Below are positions 1,739-6,808 of a stretch of DNA of 7,358 nucleotides, piece after piece. The notes under the pieces were generated by a model. It was not told where the DNA came from and made no database searches. It was given only the letters and a program-made list of their open reading frames with translations. The translations under genes and the position numbers were made by a program. The first letter of the stretch is position 1. The number at the start of each line of letters is the position of its first letter. Location: positions 1 to 7,358 of the IMG/VR virus record IMGVR_UViG_2703718800_000016; one strand, written 5' to 3'. Origin of the DNA: a virus. Lineage: Duplodnaviria; Heunggongvirae; Uroviricota; Caudoviricetes.

Positions 1739-1945
1739 ATGGAAGCAATCAGAAAAATTATCTTTCGCCAGGAAGTAAAAAAAATTATCCACATCAAGGC
1801 AGACAGCACGCTGCAAAGCATGATCAACGCCGGAGAATTTCCGCAGGGTTTTCGCGTTGGTTTACGCCGTCGCGGATGGTATGAGGATGATGTGTTGTCC
1901 TGGCAGAAAGAACGCGAAGAGGAAGCACGCGGAACGGCTGCTTAA
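1739..1945 (+). CDS. alpA: AlpA/Vis-family phage regulatory protein (MerR-like HTH; excision/activation regulator)
   Basis: 68-aa product IIFRQEVKKIIHIKADSTLQSMINAGEFPQGFRVGLRRRGWYEDDVLSWQ matches the AlpA pattern R-x-x-E-V ... S-x-S-T-L ... G-x-F-P ... G-x-R ... W-x-E-x-x-V-x-x-W. AAGG lies upstream of the ATG. Position directly after int is as in CP4-57 and P4-like elements. Confidence 0.85.
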   Translation: MEAIRKIIFRQEVKKIIHIKADSTLQSMINAGEFPQGFRVGLRRRGWYEDDVLSWQKEREEEARGTAA

Positions 1946-2324
1946 CGGGTATCACAGATATGACAAACACGAAAAAAGCGGCCCCGATATGGAGCCGCCT
2001 TTCTGAACAATTAACCCGCTGCGCCTTATGTGTATGTGATCCCAAACATAAGCACGGGGATGATAGCCGCTATCAGGCTGGTGGGCAATGCAATCAGTCT
2101 GGTTCAGTTCGTTGCCATACCTGCAATGAGCGCTTTTCCCTGTACTCTTTAAGGAATTGCTCAAGGGCAAAAGCACATGGTGCGAATCTTTCTGATTCAT
2201 GCTCTATCTTTCTGCGCCGTCTTTTTCGTGCAGGTGATGTTTTTTCGGTTGATTCTTCGTTGGTCATTGTGTGCGCCTGTAAAGCAATGCGCCGTAGTAC
2301 CTCACACCACGGCGCTGGTGATGG

Positions 2325-2504
2325 TTACTCCTGCTCTTTGGCCTTGCGGCGCTGGCGGCGTTTGATTTCGCCTTTAACGGCAGTAACTATAAATTGCGCT
2401 TTGCTTTCACCTTCATCTAAATTTTTTTCTAAGTCTGCAACAACATCATGCGGGAATCTGGCATTTAACTGTTGCGACTTATTATTTGTTGAACCTGTTG
2501 CCAT
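2325..2504 (-). CDS. Ribbon-helix-helix (Arc/MetJ-like) DNA-binding protein, putative repressor
   Basis: 59-aa product from the internal ATG at 2504 (rc of CAT 2502-2504): MATGSTNNKSQQLNARFPHDVVADLEKNLDEGESKAQFIVTAVKGEIKRRQRRKAKEQE. It resembles the Arc repressor fold pattern (strand QQLNARFP, helix HDVVADLEKNL, helix SKAQFIVTAVKGEIKRRQ). Good Shine-Dalgarno GAGG 8 nt upstream on the minus strand (AGAGAGGATTCAGTA-ATG). The ORF track extends the frame to 2669 (114 aa), but that N-terminal extension looks non-protein-like and would leave no promoter space. Confidence 0.6.
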   Translation of the reverse strand: MATGSTNNKSQQLNARFPHDVVADLEKNLDEGESKAQFIVTAVKGEIKRRQRRKAKEQE

Positions 2505-2687
2505 TACTGAATCCTCTCTAAGTTGGTGCGATTCAGTATACACAAAAAAATTCAGAGAAAAAGGCTTGAAGTGCGATTCACATGCTGATAGGTTAAAAAC
2601 AGATGGTGCGATGCACCAAATAACAACGCCCCGCAGTGCGGGAACACATACGGGGCGTCTAACCAACAACGTAAACTAGGAGCCGTT
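2505..2687. promoter_or_regulatory. Divergent intergenic control region with three 10-bp direct repeats (putative RHH operator) and hairpins
   Basis: GTGCGATTCA at 2526-2535 and 2571-2580 (identical) and GTGCGATGCA at 2606-2615, spaced 45 and 35 bp. The third copy sits in the palindrome GGTGC-GAT-GCACC. An 8-bp inverted repeat ACGCCCCG (2625-2632) / CGGGGCGT (2652-2659) encloses CCCGCA-G-TGCGGG. The region lies between the divergent RHH gene and icd-like gene 1. Confidence 0.45.
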
Positions 2688-2885
2688 ATGGTTGCCGTAA
2701 ATCATATACCACACCTTGTACACACACAAACGGCCTTTGTGTGGCGTTTTCTGGCACTGAGTGCCGGAGAATCTCAAATCATCCACGTAACCGCCTGGAC
2801 GGAACGCGAAGCGCGTAACCGTTGCCCGTCCGGTTGTGTTGCTGTATTCGCCGCCCGTATTCGTCAGGGGTCACATCATGCGTAA
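2688..2885 (+). CDS. Host cell division inhibitor Icd-like protein (paralog 1)
   Basis: 65-aa product ending ...FVWRFLALSAGESQIIHVTAWTEREARNRCPSGCVAVFAARIRQGSHHA. The motif set W-R-F ... VTA-x-TEREAR ... F-x-ARI-x-QG matches what I remember of Icd-like proteins of P1 and P4-like prophages. Shine-Dalgarno TAGGAG 5 nt before the ATG. Confidence 0.75.
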   Translation: MVAVNHIPHLVHTQTAFVWRFLALSAGESQIIHVTAWTEREARNRCPSGCVAVFAARIRQGSHHA

Positions 2886-3171
2886 AAACCGCTTGCAAAA
2901 AATTATCACGGGGCTGTATGCTTCCCGCGTCACCCACATGGTGACCGGGTTTGACAGCCTGAATACTACAGCGGACAGCCGCTTACATTCCGATATGCGG
3001 TTTTTTTGTGTCCGTAAACCTACCCATACCCGCATTATGGCGGGGCGTAACGGGGGAGCCTTTGCGCTCGCTGGTTCCTGTAGTGCCAGTCTGTCAACCC
3101 TGTTACGTCTCGCCACCATGTTTGACAGCGTAGTAGCGAGACTCCTTAATTTCACTACAGGAGCCTTTCAC

Positions 3172-3345
3172 ATGGCTGTATCCACACGCCCTTATTTTAT
3201 CTGGCGCTTCATGCAGTGCCATGAAAAACAAACCTCACTCTTTACCGTCACGGCTGCCACTGAGCGCGAAGCACGCGCGCAGCTGCCGCACGCACATCTG
3301 ATTTTTGTCGCCCGTATTCGTCAGGGGGAAACCTATGCACAATAA
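3172..3345 (+). CDS. Host cell division inhibitor Icd-like protein (paralog 2; may instead be the C-terminal domain of a longer ORF starting at 2878)
   Basis: 57-aa product MAVSTRPYFIWRFMQCHEKQTSLFTVTAATEREARAQLPHAHLIFVARIRQGETYAQ aligns with paralog 1 (FIWRF / VTAATEREAR / FVARIRQG). AGGAG at 3159-3163 lies 8 nt before ATG 3172. A candidate promoter TTGACA (3122-3127) - 17 bp - CTTAAT (3145-3150) has a perfect -35 but a weak -10. The same frame is open back to ATG 2878, so a 155-aa fusion cannot be excluded. Confidence 0.6.
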   Translation: MAVSTRPYFIWRFMQCHEKQTSLFTVTAATEREARAQLPHAHLIFVARIRQGETYAQ

Positions 3346-3565: not shown

Positions 3566-3785
3566 AATCCCTTTTGAAGTATTAATCCACTCTGAAAACG
3601 CATTAATTAAAGCACGCGAAATGAATGCGTTGTTAATTAAATTAATTGAAGTGCCGGAAGGTGGTGAGGAATCAGGTGTATTAATGTTTGCAGCCATTCA
3701 GACATTACTATCGCCTGTTATTGATGAACTGGATAAGGCAATGGCAATTCACGAAAATAATAACGCGCCCCACACCGGAGAATAA
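3558..3785 (+). CDS. Hypothetical small acidic protein (AT-rich cassette gene 2)
   Basis: About 75 aa from ATG 3558 (the track starts at GTG 3555): MHKIPFEVLIHSENALIKAREMNALLIKLIEVPEGGEESGVLMFAAIQTLLSPVIDELDKAMAIHENNNAPHTGE. GGGAG lies about 10 nt upstream. There is an 8-nt start/stop overlap with gene 1 (ATGCATAA), suggesting translational coupling. Strongly acidic. No motif recognised. Confidence 0.55.
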   Translation: MHKIPFEVLIHSENALIKAREMNALLIKLIEVPEGGEESGVLMFAAIQTLLSPVIDELDKAMAIHENNNAPHTGE

Positions 3786-3790
3786 AAATA

Positions 3791-4090
3791 ATGAAACTTA
3801 AATATTCTGGCTTAACTGCCAGTGGCAACACTCACCCTAAATTTACGCGCGGTGATATTTACCGCGACCAGTACGGCGGCACGGTAATGATTAAGGGCGT
3901 GGCGGGACGGTGCGTAACTTACCGCCGTGAAGGTTACGAATATGATTGCGTGATGCCTGTTTATCAGTTCCGGCGTGATTTTTCTCTGGTACAGGCAGCG
4001 CCCCGCAGTAAACCAACCAGCAGGGAGAAAGCACGCGCCAATATTCAGGAAATAAGAAAGATGTTGAATGTATTCAGGGGTAAAAAATGA
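3791..4090 (+). CDS. Hypothetical small protein translationally coupled to the primase gene
   Basis: 99 aa (MKLKYSGLTASGNTHPKFTRGDIYRDQYGGTVMIKGVAGRCVTYRREGYEYDC...). GGAG lies 10 nt before the ATG. Its stop overlaps the primase start (ATGA at 4087-4090). GC content is normal, about 53% in a hand-counted 60-nt sample. By position it is analogous to the small genes preceding alpha in the P4 replication operon; that is inference only. Confidence 0.6.
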   Translation: MKLKYSGLTASGNTHPKFTRGDIYRDQYGGTVMIKGVAGRCVTYRREGYEYDCVMPVYQFRRDFSLVQAAPRSKPTSREKARANIQEIRKMLNVFRGKK

Positions 4091-5835
4091 AACTTGCACC
4101 GAACGTAAAAAAACAACCACGCGGAATAAAACACAAAGACACAGAGGTAATTATTTTCGCGGGTAGTGATGCGTGGGCACATGCAAAACAGTGGCAGGAG
4201 CAGGACGGCCCCGCATCCGGCGATAATGTGCCGCCTGTGTGGATTGGGCCAAATCAGCTTGCCGAACTTGATGCACTGAAAATTGTTCCTGATGGAAAAA
4301 AACGCGTAAGGCTGTACCAGGCCGGAGAACTGGATTTGGTGGAGACCAAAAAGATTGGTCAGAAGCTGGCGGCGGCAGATATTCAGGACGCAAATTTTTA
4401 CCCCGAAGGAATGCACGTCCAGAAGTGTGAAAACTGGCGGCGCTATCTGAATGCTGAGCGTGAAAATATTGCCGCAGGGCTTACCATGCCGGAGCAGAAA
4501 AATACGCAACTGGCACAAATGGCAGACAGTGAGCGCGCGCAGCTGCTTGCCGAGCGCTTTGATGGCGTTTGTGTGCATCCGGAAAGTGAAATCGTTCACG
4601 TATGGCGCGGCGGGGTATGGTGTCCGGTCAGCACAATGGAACTTAGCCGCGAAATGGTGGCGATCTATTCAGAGCACAGGGCCACTTTCAGCAAGCGCGT
4701 AATCAATAACGCCGTGGAAGCGTTAAAAGTTATTGCCGAACCAATGGGCGAGCCGTCCGGCGATTTGTTGCCGTTCGCCAATGGTGCGCTTGACCTGAAA
4801 ACGGGGGAATTTTCCCCGCACACGCCGGAGAACTGGATCACCACGCACAACGGCATTGAGTACACGCCACCAGCACCAGGGGAGAATATATGCGACAACG
4901 CGCCAAACTTTCATAAATGGCTTGAGCACGCAGCCGGAAAAGACCCGCGCAAGATGATGCGTATATGTGCCGCGCTGTACATGATTATGGCGAACCGGTA
5001 CGACTGGCAGATGTTTATTGAGGCCACCGGAGAGGGCGGTAGCGGTAAAAGTACATTCACGCACATAGCCAGCCTTCTGGCAGGGAAACAGAACACGGTA
5101 AGCGCTGAAATGACCTCACTTGATGATGCTGGTGGACGTGCGCAGGTTGTCGGGAGTCGTCTTATCGTCCTGGCTGACCAGCCGAAATATACAGGCGAAG
5201 GAACGGGCATCAAGAAAATCACGGGCGGCGACCCCGTGGAAATAAACCCGAAATATGAGAAGCGTTTTACGGCGGTAATCAGGGCGGTGGTGCTGGCTAC
5301 CAACAATAACCCGATGATATTCACCGAGCGGGCCGGAGGTGTGTCACGCCGTCGGGTGATTTTCCGGTTCGACAACATTGTAAGGGAGGACGAAAAAGAC
5401 AAGGATTTGCCGGAGAAGGTCGCGGCTGAAATCCCCGTAATTATCCGTCGCTTGCTGGCTAATTTTGCCGACCATGAAAAGGCACGGGCTTTATTACTGG
5501 AACAGCGCGACGGTGATGAAGCTCTGGCAATAAAGCAACAGACGGATCCGGTTATTGAGTTTTGCCAGTTCCTGAATTTTCTGGAGGAAGCACGCGGCCT
5601 GATGATGGGCGGCGGTGGCGATTCAGTGAAGTACACGACCAGAAACAGCCTTTACCGCGTCTATCTGGCGTTTATGGCATACGCAGGCAGGAGCAAACCG
5701 CTAAACGTGGCTGAGTTCAGCAAGGCCATGAAGCCAGCGGCAAAAGTTTACGGACATGAATATATTACGCGGAGAGTTAAGGGAGTAACGCAGACCAACG
5801 CAATTACAACTGATGATTGTGACGCGTTTTTATAA
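4087..5835 (+). CDS. Replication initiator: primase-associated SF3 helicase (P4-alpha / D5-like C-terminal NTPase; PICI Pri-Rep-like)
   Basis: 582 aa. Walker A GEGGSGKST and Walker B-like RLIVLADQP lie in the central region, matching the phage/plasmid primase P4-family C-terminal helicase domain. The classic P4 alpha primase motif EGYATA is absent, so the N-terminal domain is of uncertain type. Shine-Dalgarno GGGG 6 nt before the ATG. It is immediately followed by the iteron cluster. Confidence 0.9.
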   Translation: MKLAPNVKKQPRGIKHKDTEVIIFAGSDAWAHAKQWQEQDGPASGDNVPPVWIGPNQLAELDALKIVPDGKKRVRLYQAGELDLVETKKIGQKLAAADIQDANFYPEGMHVQKCENWRRYLNAERENIAAGLTMPEQKNTQLAQMADSERAQLLAERFDGVCVHPESEIVHVWRGGVWCPVSTMELSREMVAIYSEHRATFSKRVINNAVEALKVIAEPMGEPSGDLLPFANGALDLKTGEFSPHTPENWITTHNGIEYTPPAPGENICDNAPNFHKWLEHAAGKDPRKMMRICAALYMIMANRYDWQMFIEATGEGGSGKSTFTHIASLLAGKQNTVSAEMTSLDDAGGRAQVVGSRLIVLADQPKYTGEGTGIKKITGGDPVEINPKYEKRFTAVIRAVVLATNNNPMIFTERAGGVSRRRVIFRFDNIVREDEKDKDLPEKVAAEIPVIIRRLLANFADHEKARALLLEQRDGDEALAIKQQTDPVIEFCQFLNFLEEARGLMMGGGGDSVKYTTRNSLYRVYLAFMAYAGRSKPLNVAEFSKAMKPAAKVYGHEYITRRVKGVTQTNAITTDDCDAFL

Positions 5836-6199: not shown

Positions 6200-6401
6200 A
6201 TGACAGAGCACGCTTTAAAGGTGGCAATCAGAACGATAGACCGCCACGCGGGGGGAAGGATACGCGAAAGCACATCCCGAACTGATAAGCGCATTCATGA
6301 CCACGACGGCGGCAAATTTTGCCACGCTGACAGAACGGGAGATTGCCGAAGCGGAACAGGTAACAACCATCAACGTTAAAACCGGAGAGGTGGAATCATG
6401 A
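6200..6401 (+). pseudogene. Small protein gene apparently interrupted by a 1-nt frame change at a G6 homopolymer (6250-6255); may be an assembly/sequencing indel or a genuine frameshift
   Basis: The frame from ATG 6200 (MTEHALKVAIRTIDRHAGG...) runs into an arginine/glycine-rich, non-protein-like tail ending at 6379. The +1 frame from 6252 reads GEGYAKAHPELISAFMTTTAANFATLTEREIAEAEQVTTINVKTGEVES and ends with TGA overlapping the ssb ATG (ATGA at 6398-6401). Removing one G would give a continuous ~65-aa ORF coupled to ssb. The track ORF 6122..6379 is the upstream frame. Confidence 0.35.
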
Positions 6402-6808
6402 CAGCACAGATAGCAGCTTACGGGCGGCTGGTGGACGACCCGCAGGTAAAACAGACCAGCAAGGGCACACCAATGACGCTGGCACGTATGGCGGTATCGT
6501 TGCCATGTAGTCAGGCGCAGGATGGGCAGGCGACGTTATGGCTATCGGTCATCGCATTTGGTAAGCAGGCCGACTTCCTGGCTAAACATCAAAAAGGCGA
6601 CGTTGCCAGCGTATCCGGCACGATGCAGGTCAGCCAGTGGACCGGACAGAACGGGGAAACGCGGCAGGGTTATCAGGTTATTGCAGACAGCGTAATCAGT
6701 GCCCGTGCGGCACGTCCTGGCGGGAACAGACGCAAAACCACAGGCACACAGGGTAATCAGCCACCAGCGGGAGACGATGACCCCTACGGGGATAACATAC
6801 CGTTTTAA
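6398..6808 (+). CDS. ssb: Single-stranded DNA-binding protein (compact SSB-like)
   Basis: 136 aa. The OB-fold region aligns by eye to E. coli SSB ([26 protein letters not shown] vs [74 protein letters not shown] vs [49 protein letters not shown]). A short Gly/Pro linker leads to an acidic tip [11 protein letters not shown] (canonical SSB tip is DDDIPF). Shine-Dalgarno GGAGAGG 7 nt before the ATG. Confidence 0.85.
   Translation: [136 protein letters not shown]

Follow-up and report, generated by a model that had tools for sequence, protein, structure and literature searches.

Which protein acts on the short repeats in front of the icd-primase operon of the virus record IMGVR_UViG_2703718800_000016, and to what effect, is the question raised by the intergenic region described here. 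The window, i.e. the whole stretch of DNA analysed, comprises 7358 bp of that record, and all coordinates refer to it. On its minus strand an open reading frame at 2325-2504, with the ATG at 2504, encodes a protein of 59 amino acids (aa), MATGSTNNKSQQLNARFPHDVVADLEKNLDEGESKAQFIVTAVKGEIKRRQRRKAKEQE, and the gap between it and the start codon of an icd-like gene (ATG at 2688) measures 183 bp. The original prediction, made from the same DNA, had proposed a 59-aa minus-strand gene divergent from the icd-primase operon, and the reading frame and the gap both proved correct; it had further proposed that the protein is of the ribbon-helix-helix (RHH) type and binds 10-bp repeats within the gap. The protein belongs to the YlcI/YnfO family and is referred to below as YlcI. 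Comparative sequence data make it quite probable that YlcI represses both its own gene and the rightward operon of icd, C4 and replication genes, and that its specificity classes act like immunity types.

The repeats themselves are clearly present. GTGCGATTCA is found at 2526-2535 and again at 2571-2580, and GTGCGATGCA at 2606-2615, giving the two identical copies and one variant at spacings of 45 and 35 bp that had been claimed. The consensus GTGCGATKCA has three matches in the window, all of them between ylcI and icd, which is far above chance, with 0.07 matches expected from shuffled sequences and none of 200 shuffles reaching three. The description as three 10-bp direct repeats is nevertheless only partly right, for every one of them falls within a longer, 13-bp site, GGTG-N5-CACC, in which constant palindromic arms enclose a variable 5-bp core. 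The sites are therefore pseudo-palindromes, the third of which is inverted in many relatives, and while 10 of the 13 bp of each site had been caught, the GGTG/CACC arms and the overlap with promoter hexamers had been missed. The third site is the sole perfect GGTGN5CACC in the window, and no further operators beyond chance expectation were found elsewhere in it.

The placement of the sites was compared over 47 loci from about 25 genera, comprising 42 loci (one genome per species), three second copies within them, the window and its nearest full-length relative, the locus L001; six extra E. coli loci beyond these 47 formed a further set. The first site, O1 (GGTG-CGATT-CAGT, 2525-2537, plus strand), overlies the -10 of the ylcI promoter together with its predicted start; counted from the ylcI ATG, the site is at +21 in each of the 47 loci. 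The predicted -10 hexamer of this promoter, TATACT at 2535-2540 on the minus strand, reads TATACT or TATAAT in 41 of 47 loci; a clear -35 is lacking and the upstream DNA is A/T-rich. The rightward promoter of the icd operon has a predicted -35 hexamer TTGAAG (2566-2571, plus strand), and TTGAnn directly precedes the second site in 45 of 47 loci. That site, O2 (AGTG-CGATT-CACA, 2570-2582, plus strand), fills the spacer between -35 and -10, is located at +65 to +67 in all 47 loci and in each locus has the same core as O1. The predicted -10 hexamer TAGGTT (2589-2594, plus strand) follows the -35 after 17 nt, and TAnnnT at a spacer of 17-18 nt is found in 47 of 47 loci. Finally, O3 (GGTG-CGATG-CACC, 2605-2617, plus strand) extends from about +4 to +16 relative to the predicted rightward start. 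Every locus has such a third site, in one or the other orientation, at a distance of +88 to +102 from the ATG; it starts 9-10 bp past the -10 or abuts it. A generic promoter scan with stricter thresholds called none of these promoters, and the calls rest on conservation across the 47 loci, from which we infer the start sites of both transcripts. The conservation of the repeats in related elements, proposed as a check in the original prediction, is thus borne out, with a site layout that is fixed and cores that are class-specific. Given the placement of O1-O3 on the promoter elements, a protein bound there would exclude RNA polymerase.

Whereas the layout is fixed across the loci, the 5-bp core varies, and it varies with residues 12-14 of the predicted β-strand of YlcI, forming at least 12 strand/core pairings. 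The window belongs to class A, in which the strand KSQQLNARF is paired with the core CGATT. In other classes KSQMTTVRI is found with TATGT or TATTT, KSQQIVSRV with GCATT, KSLQVSVRL with GTGTT and KSRQKTARV with GGAGT, while KSQS(V/I/L)T(V/A)R(V/I) accompanies TAAGA or TAAGC and KSQL(F/T)TVRV accompanies TGTWT. Further pairings are those of KSQK(I/L)QARA with GAATC, KSKRFDVRV with TCCGA, KSQALKARV with GGCCA, and KSQKMQARV with GAGCA. Within and between classes, respectively, the identity of DNA columns is 0.96 and 0.36 for the cores, 0.90 and 0.86 for the arms, and 0.72 and 0.61 for the remaining columns. The cores are hence both the best conserved and the most class-discriminating columns, which is the signature of a specificity determinant and not of simple linkage. 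On the protein side, information on the core class is highest at positions 12, 13 and 14 (0.71, 0.84 and 0.77), and within-class exceptions are zero at positions 11, 12 and 14; positions 5, 22 and 43 likewise correlate with class, indicating some phylogenetic structure. As a control for shared ancestry, the cores of class A are invariant from Escherichia to Xenorhabdus despite saturated synonymous sites. The second copies in L005 and L016 (Pectobacterium and Superficieibacter) have the same strand-core pairings as other genera, and the second copy L008b combines a new strand with a new core. In an out-of-sample test the predicted core was found in five of the five extra E. coli loci with a known strand type. 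The site of L049, ACTGGA-A-TCCAGT, is a perfect palindrome, which fits the expectation for a symmetric dimer. Taken together, the co-variation of strand and core strongly supports the proposal that the protein binds the repeats.

The gene encoding YlcI evidently is a real one. The protein scores 63.3 bits against the YlcI/YnfO family model of NCBIfam (NF041551; cutoff 30), with residues 9-50 spanning the entire 42-position model, and the YlcI of E. coli K-12 matches the same model at 37.6 bits. Among the PHROGs it is assigned to phrog_949, annotated as of unknown function. Against Pfam it has no match even at an E-value of 10, DUF3950 (PF13132) included, whereas K-12 YlcI matches DUF3950 at 72.8 bits; on these scores the window protein represents a subfamily separate from Pfam DUF3950. 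Its homologues form 134 clusters, all from Enterobacterales, and an exhaustive profile search of 1.84 billion representatives returned only 90 clusters. A tblastn search of 50,697 phage records gave no match, i.e. none of these phage records encodes the window protein, and among 5426 complete E. coli genomes, 1595 (~29%) contain a related module. No function is assigned to the YlcI/YnfO family in Pfam, PHROGs or the accessible literature, which does not cover paywalled papers. Within a specificity class the non-synonymous divergence is 0.03-0.14 at a saturated synonymous divergence (pS 0.5-0.84), and since the resulting dN/dS is 0.03-0.17, ylcI is by this measure a real gene under purifying selection. 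A lack of expression of the 2325-2504 reading frame, which the original prediction had named as grounds for its own refutation, is thereby effectively ruled out. A Shine-Dalgarno motif GAGG can be read from the minus strand at 2513-2516, 8 nt upstream of the ylcI start codon, and motifs containing GGAG or GAGG occupy the same position in the related loci.

The fold of the protein is most likely that of the RHH family, to which several weak lines of evidence point. In the alignment, polar and hydrophobic residues alternate from K9 to F17 and are joined by the invariant R16 and P18; then follow a helix, a turn of the form G32-E33-S/T34, and a second helix, at the end of which EIKRRQR is invariant. 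The order of strand, helix A and helix B, with alternating strand residues and a G-x-S/T/N turn, is that of an RHH protein. The AlphaFold2 model of the monomer has coil at 1-18 and helices at 19-30 and 35-58, with no strand and a low predicted local distance difference test score of 68; such a coil-helix-helix arrangement is what would be expected for an RHH monomer, as its strand takes shape only upon dimerisation. The class-A strand Q-L-N-A-R-F-P is similar to the Q-F-N-L-R-W-P of Arc, although hhalign aligns the two proteins at a probability of only 23.5%. Sub-threshold matches were obtained to CB_ParB_C in eight of 30 members and to PSK_trans_fac in six of 30, and for distant members to PSK_trans_fac (2.9e-4), RHH_1 (0.029) and TacA1 (0.03). 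Two profiles searched against the Protein Data Bank (PDB) gave marginal matches only, with 3no7 at an E-value of 0.029. CB_ParB_C, PSK_trans_fac, RHH_1, TacA1 and 3no7 are all RHH families or structures, and although none of the matches to known RHH sequences, profiles or structures was significant, the weak ones concentrate on RHH families. Of the 'Arc-like RHH' label given in the original prediction, the Arc-like strand pattern holds, but the fold as such is only weakly supported. Variants of 101-103 aa with a C-terminal extension (...NPLVSSLDALAKVEQIGIKAAEEIGQLVTVAREELQRRK...) are also observed, in L046 (3347-3652), L050, L052, P0079 and P0088; the extension possibly serves for oligomerisation, as a domain of Mnt does.

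The protein, the promoters and the sites are exchanged as one unit. In a BLASTN comparison with L045, a relative from E. coli O157:H7, the stretches 1972-2317 (92.8% identity) and 2617-2868 (98.4%) are homologous, whereas L045 has 239 bp of unrelated sequence in place of 2318-2616. The exchangeable cassette at 2318-2616 thus holds ylcI with its promoter, the rightward promoter and O1-O3, and its limits run from just past the hairpin behind ylcI to the penultimate base of O3. The hairpin that forms the left edge of the cassette lies at 2289-2315 on the minus strand, just 3′ of the ylcI stop codon; the terminator scan gives it a 12-pair stem with seven GC pairs and a weak T tail, and it presumably functions as a terminator. 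The corresponding slot in L045 (3847-4085, E. coli O157:H7 Balcarce_14.2) contains an unannotated 57-aa gene on the minus strand at 3854-4027, MSTPLEKRSPPYQMRLPEDF..., in front of which ACATGGTAATTACC occurs twice (4024-4040 and 4054-4070). Its product has a weak Pfam match to Arc (E 0.038) and a weak NCBIfam match to YlcI_YnfO_N (E 0.0014). Since the replacement encodes a small RHH-like gene with repeats of its own, the slot evidently holds alternative small repressor/operator cassettes; RefSeq annotates an Icd-like pseudogene on the opposite strand of the L045 slot. In L046, a helper-embedded island integrated in a phage portal gene, the leader and icd of the window are kept but are combined with a 101-aa YlcI of another class and with matching cores. 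In L005, L008 and L016 two ylcI/icd modules are located ~5 kb apart on the same contig, which suggests tandem or adjacent satellites, and the two are always of different specificity classes.

In the model that these observations favor, YlcI is a small dimeric DNA-binding repressor, most likely of the RHH type, that binds the three GGTG-N5-CACC sites. Residues 12-14 of its N-terminal strand would read the central 5 bp, and the invariant K9, S10 and R16 and the EIKRRQR tail presumably contact the invariant arms. Bound at O1, YlcI would cover the end of the -10 and the start of its own promoter, resulting in negative autoregulation, and bound at O2 in the spacer and at O3 just past the start it would block RNA polymerase at the rightward promoter, such that the icd, C4 and replication operon of the satellite would be held off during residence in the chromosome. 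Gene, promoters and operators would move as one cassette that has diversified into at least 12 pairings, and from this diversity we propose that co-resident satellites do not cross-regulate. How repression would be lifted is more speculative: a helper phage might supply an anti-repressor, as is the case for the Stl protein of SaPIs (pathogenicity islands found in Staphylococcus aureus), or AlpA-driven transcription from upstream might read through the convergent ylcI.

A different role for YlcI itself at these sites, mainly as an activator or as a two-way switch of the Mnt/Arc or CopG-like kind, for example for its own promoter or for the C4 RNA, is unlikely. P22 Mnt represses Pant and also stimulates its own promoter, the ylcI promoter is without a recognisable -35, and the rightward promoter is the only obvious source of C4 RNA, all of which would suit such a role; the positions of O1 over the ylcI -10 and start, of O2 in the spacer and of O3 at the rightward start are, however, those typical of steric repression. 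It appears improbable that the repeats are instead bound by another factor, be it AlpA, an Icd-like protein, a replicase acting on iterons, or a host or helper protein, with YlcI as a linked passenger. Linkage does make neighboring genes and sites co-diverge, the non-strand positions 5, 22 and 43 of YlcI follow class as well, and some Icd-like families are labelled 'transcriptional repressor' in PHROGs. The sites nevertheless do not track any of the other proteins of the element. The first Icd-like protein is identical at 61-63 of 65 residues (~94%) in the window, where the cores are CGATT, in L046, where they are TGTTT, and in L045, which has no such sites and has lost them exactly together with ylcI. 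L001 has a YlcI and operators identical to those of the window, yet its replicase is only 40% identical, and in other CGATT loci the integrases are 34-36% identical to that of the window, while homology to the window AlpA is not detectable. The dissociation argues against Icd, AlpA, integrase or replicase as the binder, and on these grounds the reading of the repeats as iterons of an origin or as sites for AlpA or Icd was rejected; the sites, moreover, sit on promoter elements and not in an origin-like array. A host factor is argued against by the class diversity within a single species, as it could not account for at least 12 class-specific cores within E. coli alone.

Still less probable is a role of YlcI outside transcriptional control of the operon, as the antitoxin of a toxin-antitoxin pair or as a ParG/omega-like centromere binder for the excised element. 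Many RHH proteins have these roles, PSK_trans_fac, TacA1, CB_ParB_C and 3no7 are among the weak matches, and a 57-aa reading frame (phrog_21027) lies next on the same strand. This reading frame, however, is shared only with L001 and L045 and not with the other 42 loci, no ParA-like gene is found in the window or in L001, and the sites are three single ones on promoter elements, not a repeat array, in an element that is integrated. That the reading frame is not expressed at all, and the repeats are merely promoter-associated sequence, is scarcely credible: the protein is indeed very small and without a Pfam match, but against this stand the low dN/dS at saturated synonymous divergence, the 134 clusters in Enterobacterales with a curated NCBIfam model, and the conserved Shine-Dalgarno motif and -10.

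The repressor proposed here does not replace RNA-based control. The original prediction had set a protein-based switch against the CI RNA of P4, a contrast that fails, for a C4/CI-type antisense RNA is found in the same window at 3033-3120 on the plus strand, as a full-length match to Rfam RF01695 with 72.3 bits against a gathering score of 45. Directly downstream of the first icd-like gene a c4-a1b1-like target region is located at 2916-2965 (plus strand; RF03163, 42.1 bits, below the gathering score of 46.7), followed on the same strand by an isrK-like element whose terminal T-run extends to 3007 (RF01394, 33.7 bits, below the gathering score of 50). A second target-like element, TGTTTGACAGC at 3120-3130, comes shortly before the second icd gene. 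By these matches the window has the whole of a C4/CI-type unit for RNA immunity, of the kind known from P1 and P4, at a distance of 230-430 bp downstream from the repeats. Matches of Gram-negative phage-inducible chromosomal islands (PICIs) to the C4 and isrK models have been published previously (PMC10111431). With the RNA and its targets directly downstream of icd, the protein would be an extra layer over RNA immunity rather than its replacement. The ylcI cassette is also present in 12 related loci of other genera that have no C4 RNA at the gathering score, which makes the protein module the more general one and the RNA an addition in this lineage.

The element that carries the cassette is, by its gene content, a PICI-type satellite and not a P4-like one as originally labelled. 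A Gram-negative PICI is taken here to have an integrase and an AlpA-type regulator at one end, a primase or replicase and packaging genes, a size of ~9-15 kb, and site-specific integration. The window encodes a tyrosine integrase (1-1242), an AlpA-like helix-turn-helix (HTH) protein (1739-1945; Pfam 17.9 bits, below the cutoff of 21), the ylcI-type gene (2325-2504, minus strand), the first icd-like gene, icd1, which opens the rightward operon (2688-2885, plus strand; NCBIfam NF033153, 64.8 bits), a second icd-like gene read from the sequence at 3173-3345 (plus strand, ATG at 3173), a DUF4222 gene, a P4-family primase of the D5_N type (4087-5835, 582 aa) and a single-stranded DNA-binding protein (SSB; 6398-6808). 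L001, which is 96.6% identical over 1900-3000 and is annotated with two Icd-like genes, is an island of ~9 kb adjoining tRNA-Pro with int, an AlpA-like HTH gene, a replicase and SSB; at its end lie genes for a small terminase subunit and a capsid-family protein, and its annotation includes none of psu, delta, sid and epsilon. Family-model scans of the window likewise detected none of these four, which together with the alpha primase and integrase mark a P4-like satellite. The gene set thus matches that of a Gram-negative PICI, with the integrase, AlpA-like protein, primase and SSB in the window and the packaging genes in L001, and the likeness to P4 is confined to the primase domain and the C4/CI-type RNA.

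The arrangement has parallels in several known systems, and in its logic it comes nearest to Mnt/Arc in the immI region of P22 and to the immI region of P1. In the immI region of P22, Mnt and Arc are very small RHH repressors, and mnt is divergent from the operon it represses, with operators that overlap the divergent promoters and with autoregulation; the tetramerisation domain of Mnt has a possible counterpart in the C-terminal extension of the longer YlcI variants. In contrast to Mnt and Arc, the window protein has three separated 13-bp sites instead of one operator of 21 or 17 bp and shares no significant sequence match with them, and its host is a satellite with an icd and replication operon rather than a phage with ant. 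The immI region of P1 (C1 operator Op51, C4 RNA, icd and ant) resembles the window in its C4-family RNA with a and b targets, its icd-like genes and their order, and in that a protein operator at the promoter would overlie RNA control, but the P1 repressor C1 is unlinked, whereas here the 59-aa protein is encoded beside the promoter. The omega protein of pSM19035 and ParG bind one dimer per short repeat, to direct or inverted sites that overlap promoters, and the third YlcI site is inverted in many classes; the omega sites, however, are contiguous cooperative heptad arrays, unlike three sites 22-45 bp apart with palindromic arms. As in lambdoid heteroimmunity modules, the repressor changes in step with its operators and both are swapped together, a source of immunity classes, and co-residents differ in class, although the lambdoid modules have a CI/Cro pair with tripartite operators in place of an RHH-type protein with single 13-bp sites in satellites. 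The relatives in E. coli K-12, YlcI of DLP12 and YnfO of Qin, belong to the same NCBIfam family; they too are small, are associated with prophages and have the R-x-P ... helix pattern. K-12 ylcI (L044, 8252-8446) nonetheless lies in the lambdoid prophage DLP12, divergent from the terminase gene nohD over 388 bp, and GGTG-N5-CACC sites are absent upstream of it. The 388-bp region should contain cos, and the K-12 protein may have a different role, perhaps in late or packaging control.

In position and orientation the arrangement parallels that of Stl/Rpr of the SaPIs and other Gram-positive PICIs, where the repressor gene is divergent from the excision and replication operon on the integrase side (PMC6092414). 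The position of ylcI and the placement of its operators match this arrangement, as does the proposed role in keeping the island silent, although the Stl proteins are large HTH proteins unrelated in size and fold, and the present element has an AlpA-type regulator too. The 2018 paper that defined the Gram-negative PICIs describes AlpA as an activator, says of a global repressor that its existence 'is unclear' and regards the contrast with the Gram-positive islands as 'a mystery' (PMC6092414), in agreement with the original prediction that these islands rely on AlpA activation and have no known repressor. The module described here is a concrete candidate for the repressor these islands were thought to lack, located where Stl/Rpr sits. 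We tentatively extend this to the possibility that the YlcI cassettes and the small RHH cassette of O157 are the missing master repressors of many Gram-negative PICIs, with at least 12 immunity classes that do not cross-react, induction via helper anti-repressors or AlpA read-through, and a code between residues 12-14 and the core that can be re-programmed. If confirmed, the uncharacterised YlcI/YnfO family would gain a function, the sharing of one cell by several satellites without cross-talk would be explained, and satellite 'immunity types' would become predictable from sequence. The family would also provide at least 12 orthogonal pairs of very small repressors and operators with a simple specificity rule, useful for synthetic circuits.

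Several other features of the locus deserve mention. The palindromes reported earlier for the intergenic region are present as TACTGAATC/GATTCAGTA at 2505-2513/2530-2538, as the GGTGC...GCACC arms of the third repeat, and at 2626-2658. The first of these was considered as a conserved hairpin of the 5′ untranslated region and rejected, as the complementarity is lost in other classes. The last, ACGCCCCG...CGGGGCGT, is a GC-rich hairpin within the leader of icd (plus strand, inverted repeat I12, fold z-score -1.7). It was likewise rejected as a part of the switch, for it lies outside the cassette, is common to L045 and L046 with their other cassettes, and folds no better than shuffled sequences. 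On the minus strand the same hairpin looks terminator-like, and it might keep leftward transcription out of the cassette or else be a leader RNA element.

The 57-aa reading frame downstream of ylcI, at 2094-2267 on the minus strand, matches phrog_21027 at an E-value of 3e-13 and could belong to the leftward transcript; its homologue in L045 is found at 3623-3811, beside the unrelated RHH cassette. The Rfam int-alpA RNA motif (RF02996), not detected in the window at E ≤ 1, is present in five of 12 related loci (L003, L005, L017, L018 and L034). The window and L001 are near-identical across int, alpA, ylcI and icd1 and are 87-91% identical in DUF4222 and SSB, whereas the D5_N primase of the window is replaced in L001 by a RepA-family helicase (16411-17820), to which its 40% identity is a local match only, and the difference thus amounts to a swap of the replicase module. 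Finally, a plus-strand reading frame of 239 aa at 1960-2679 runs antisense through ylcI, and its equivalent in L045 (3411-4355, 314 aa) is in frame with icd. Icd1 itself matches the C-terminus of the 188-aa phrog_29966, and the long antisense frame may be the remnant of a longer Bro-zone/Icd gene that received the cassette by insertion.

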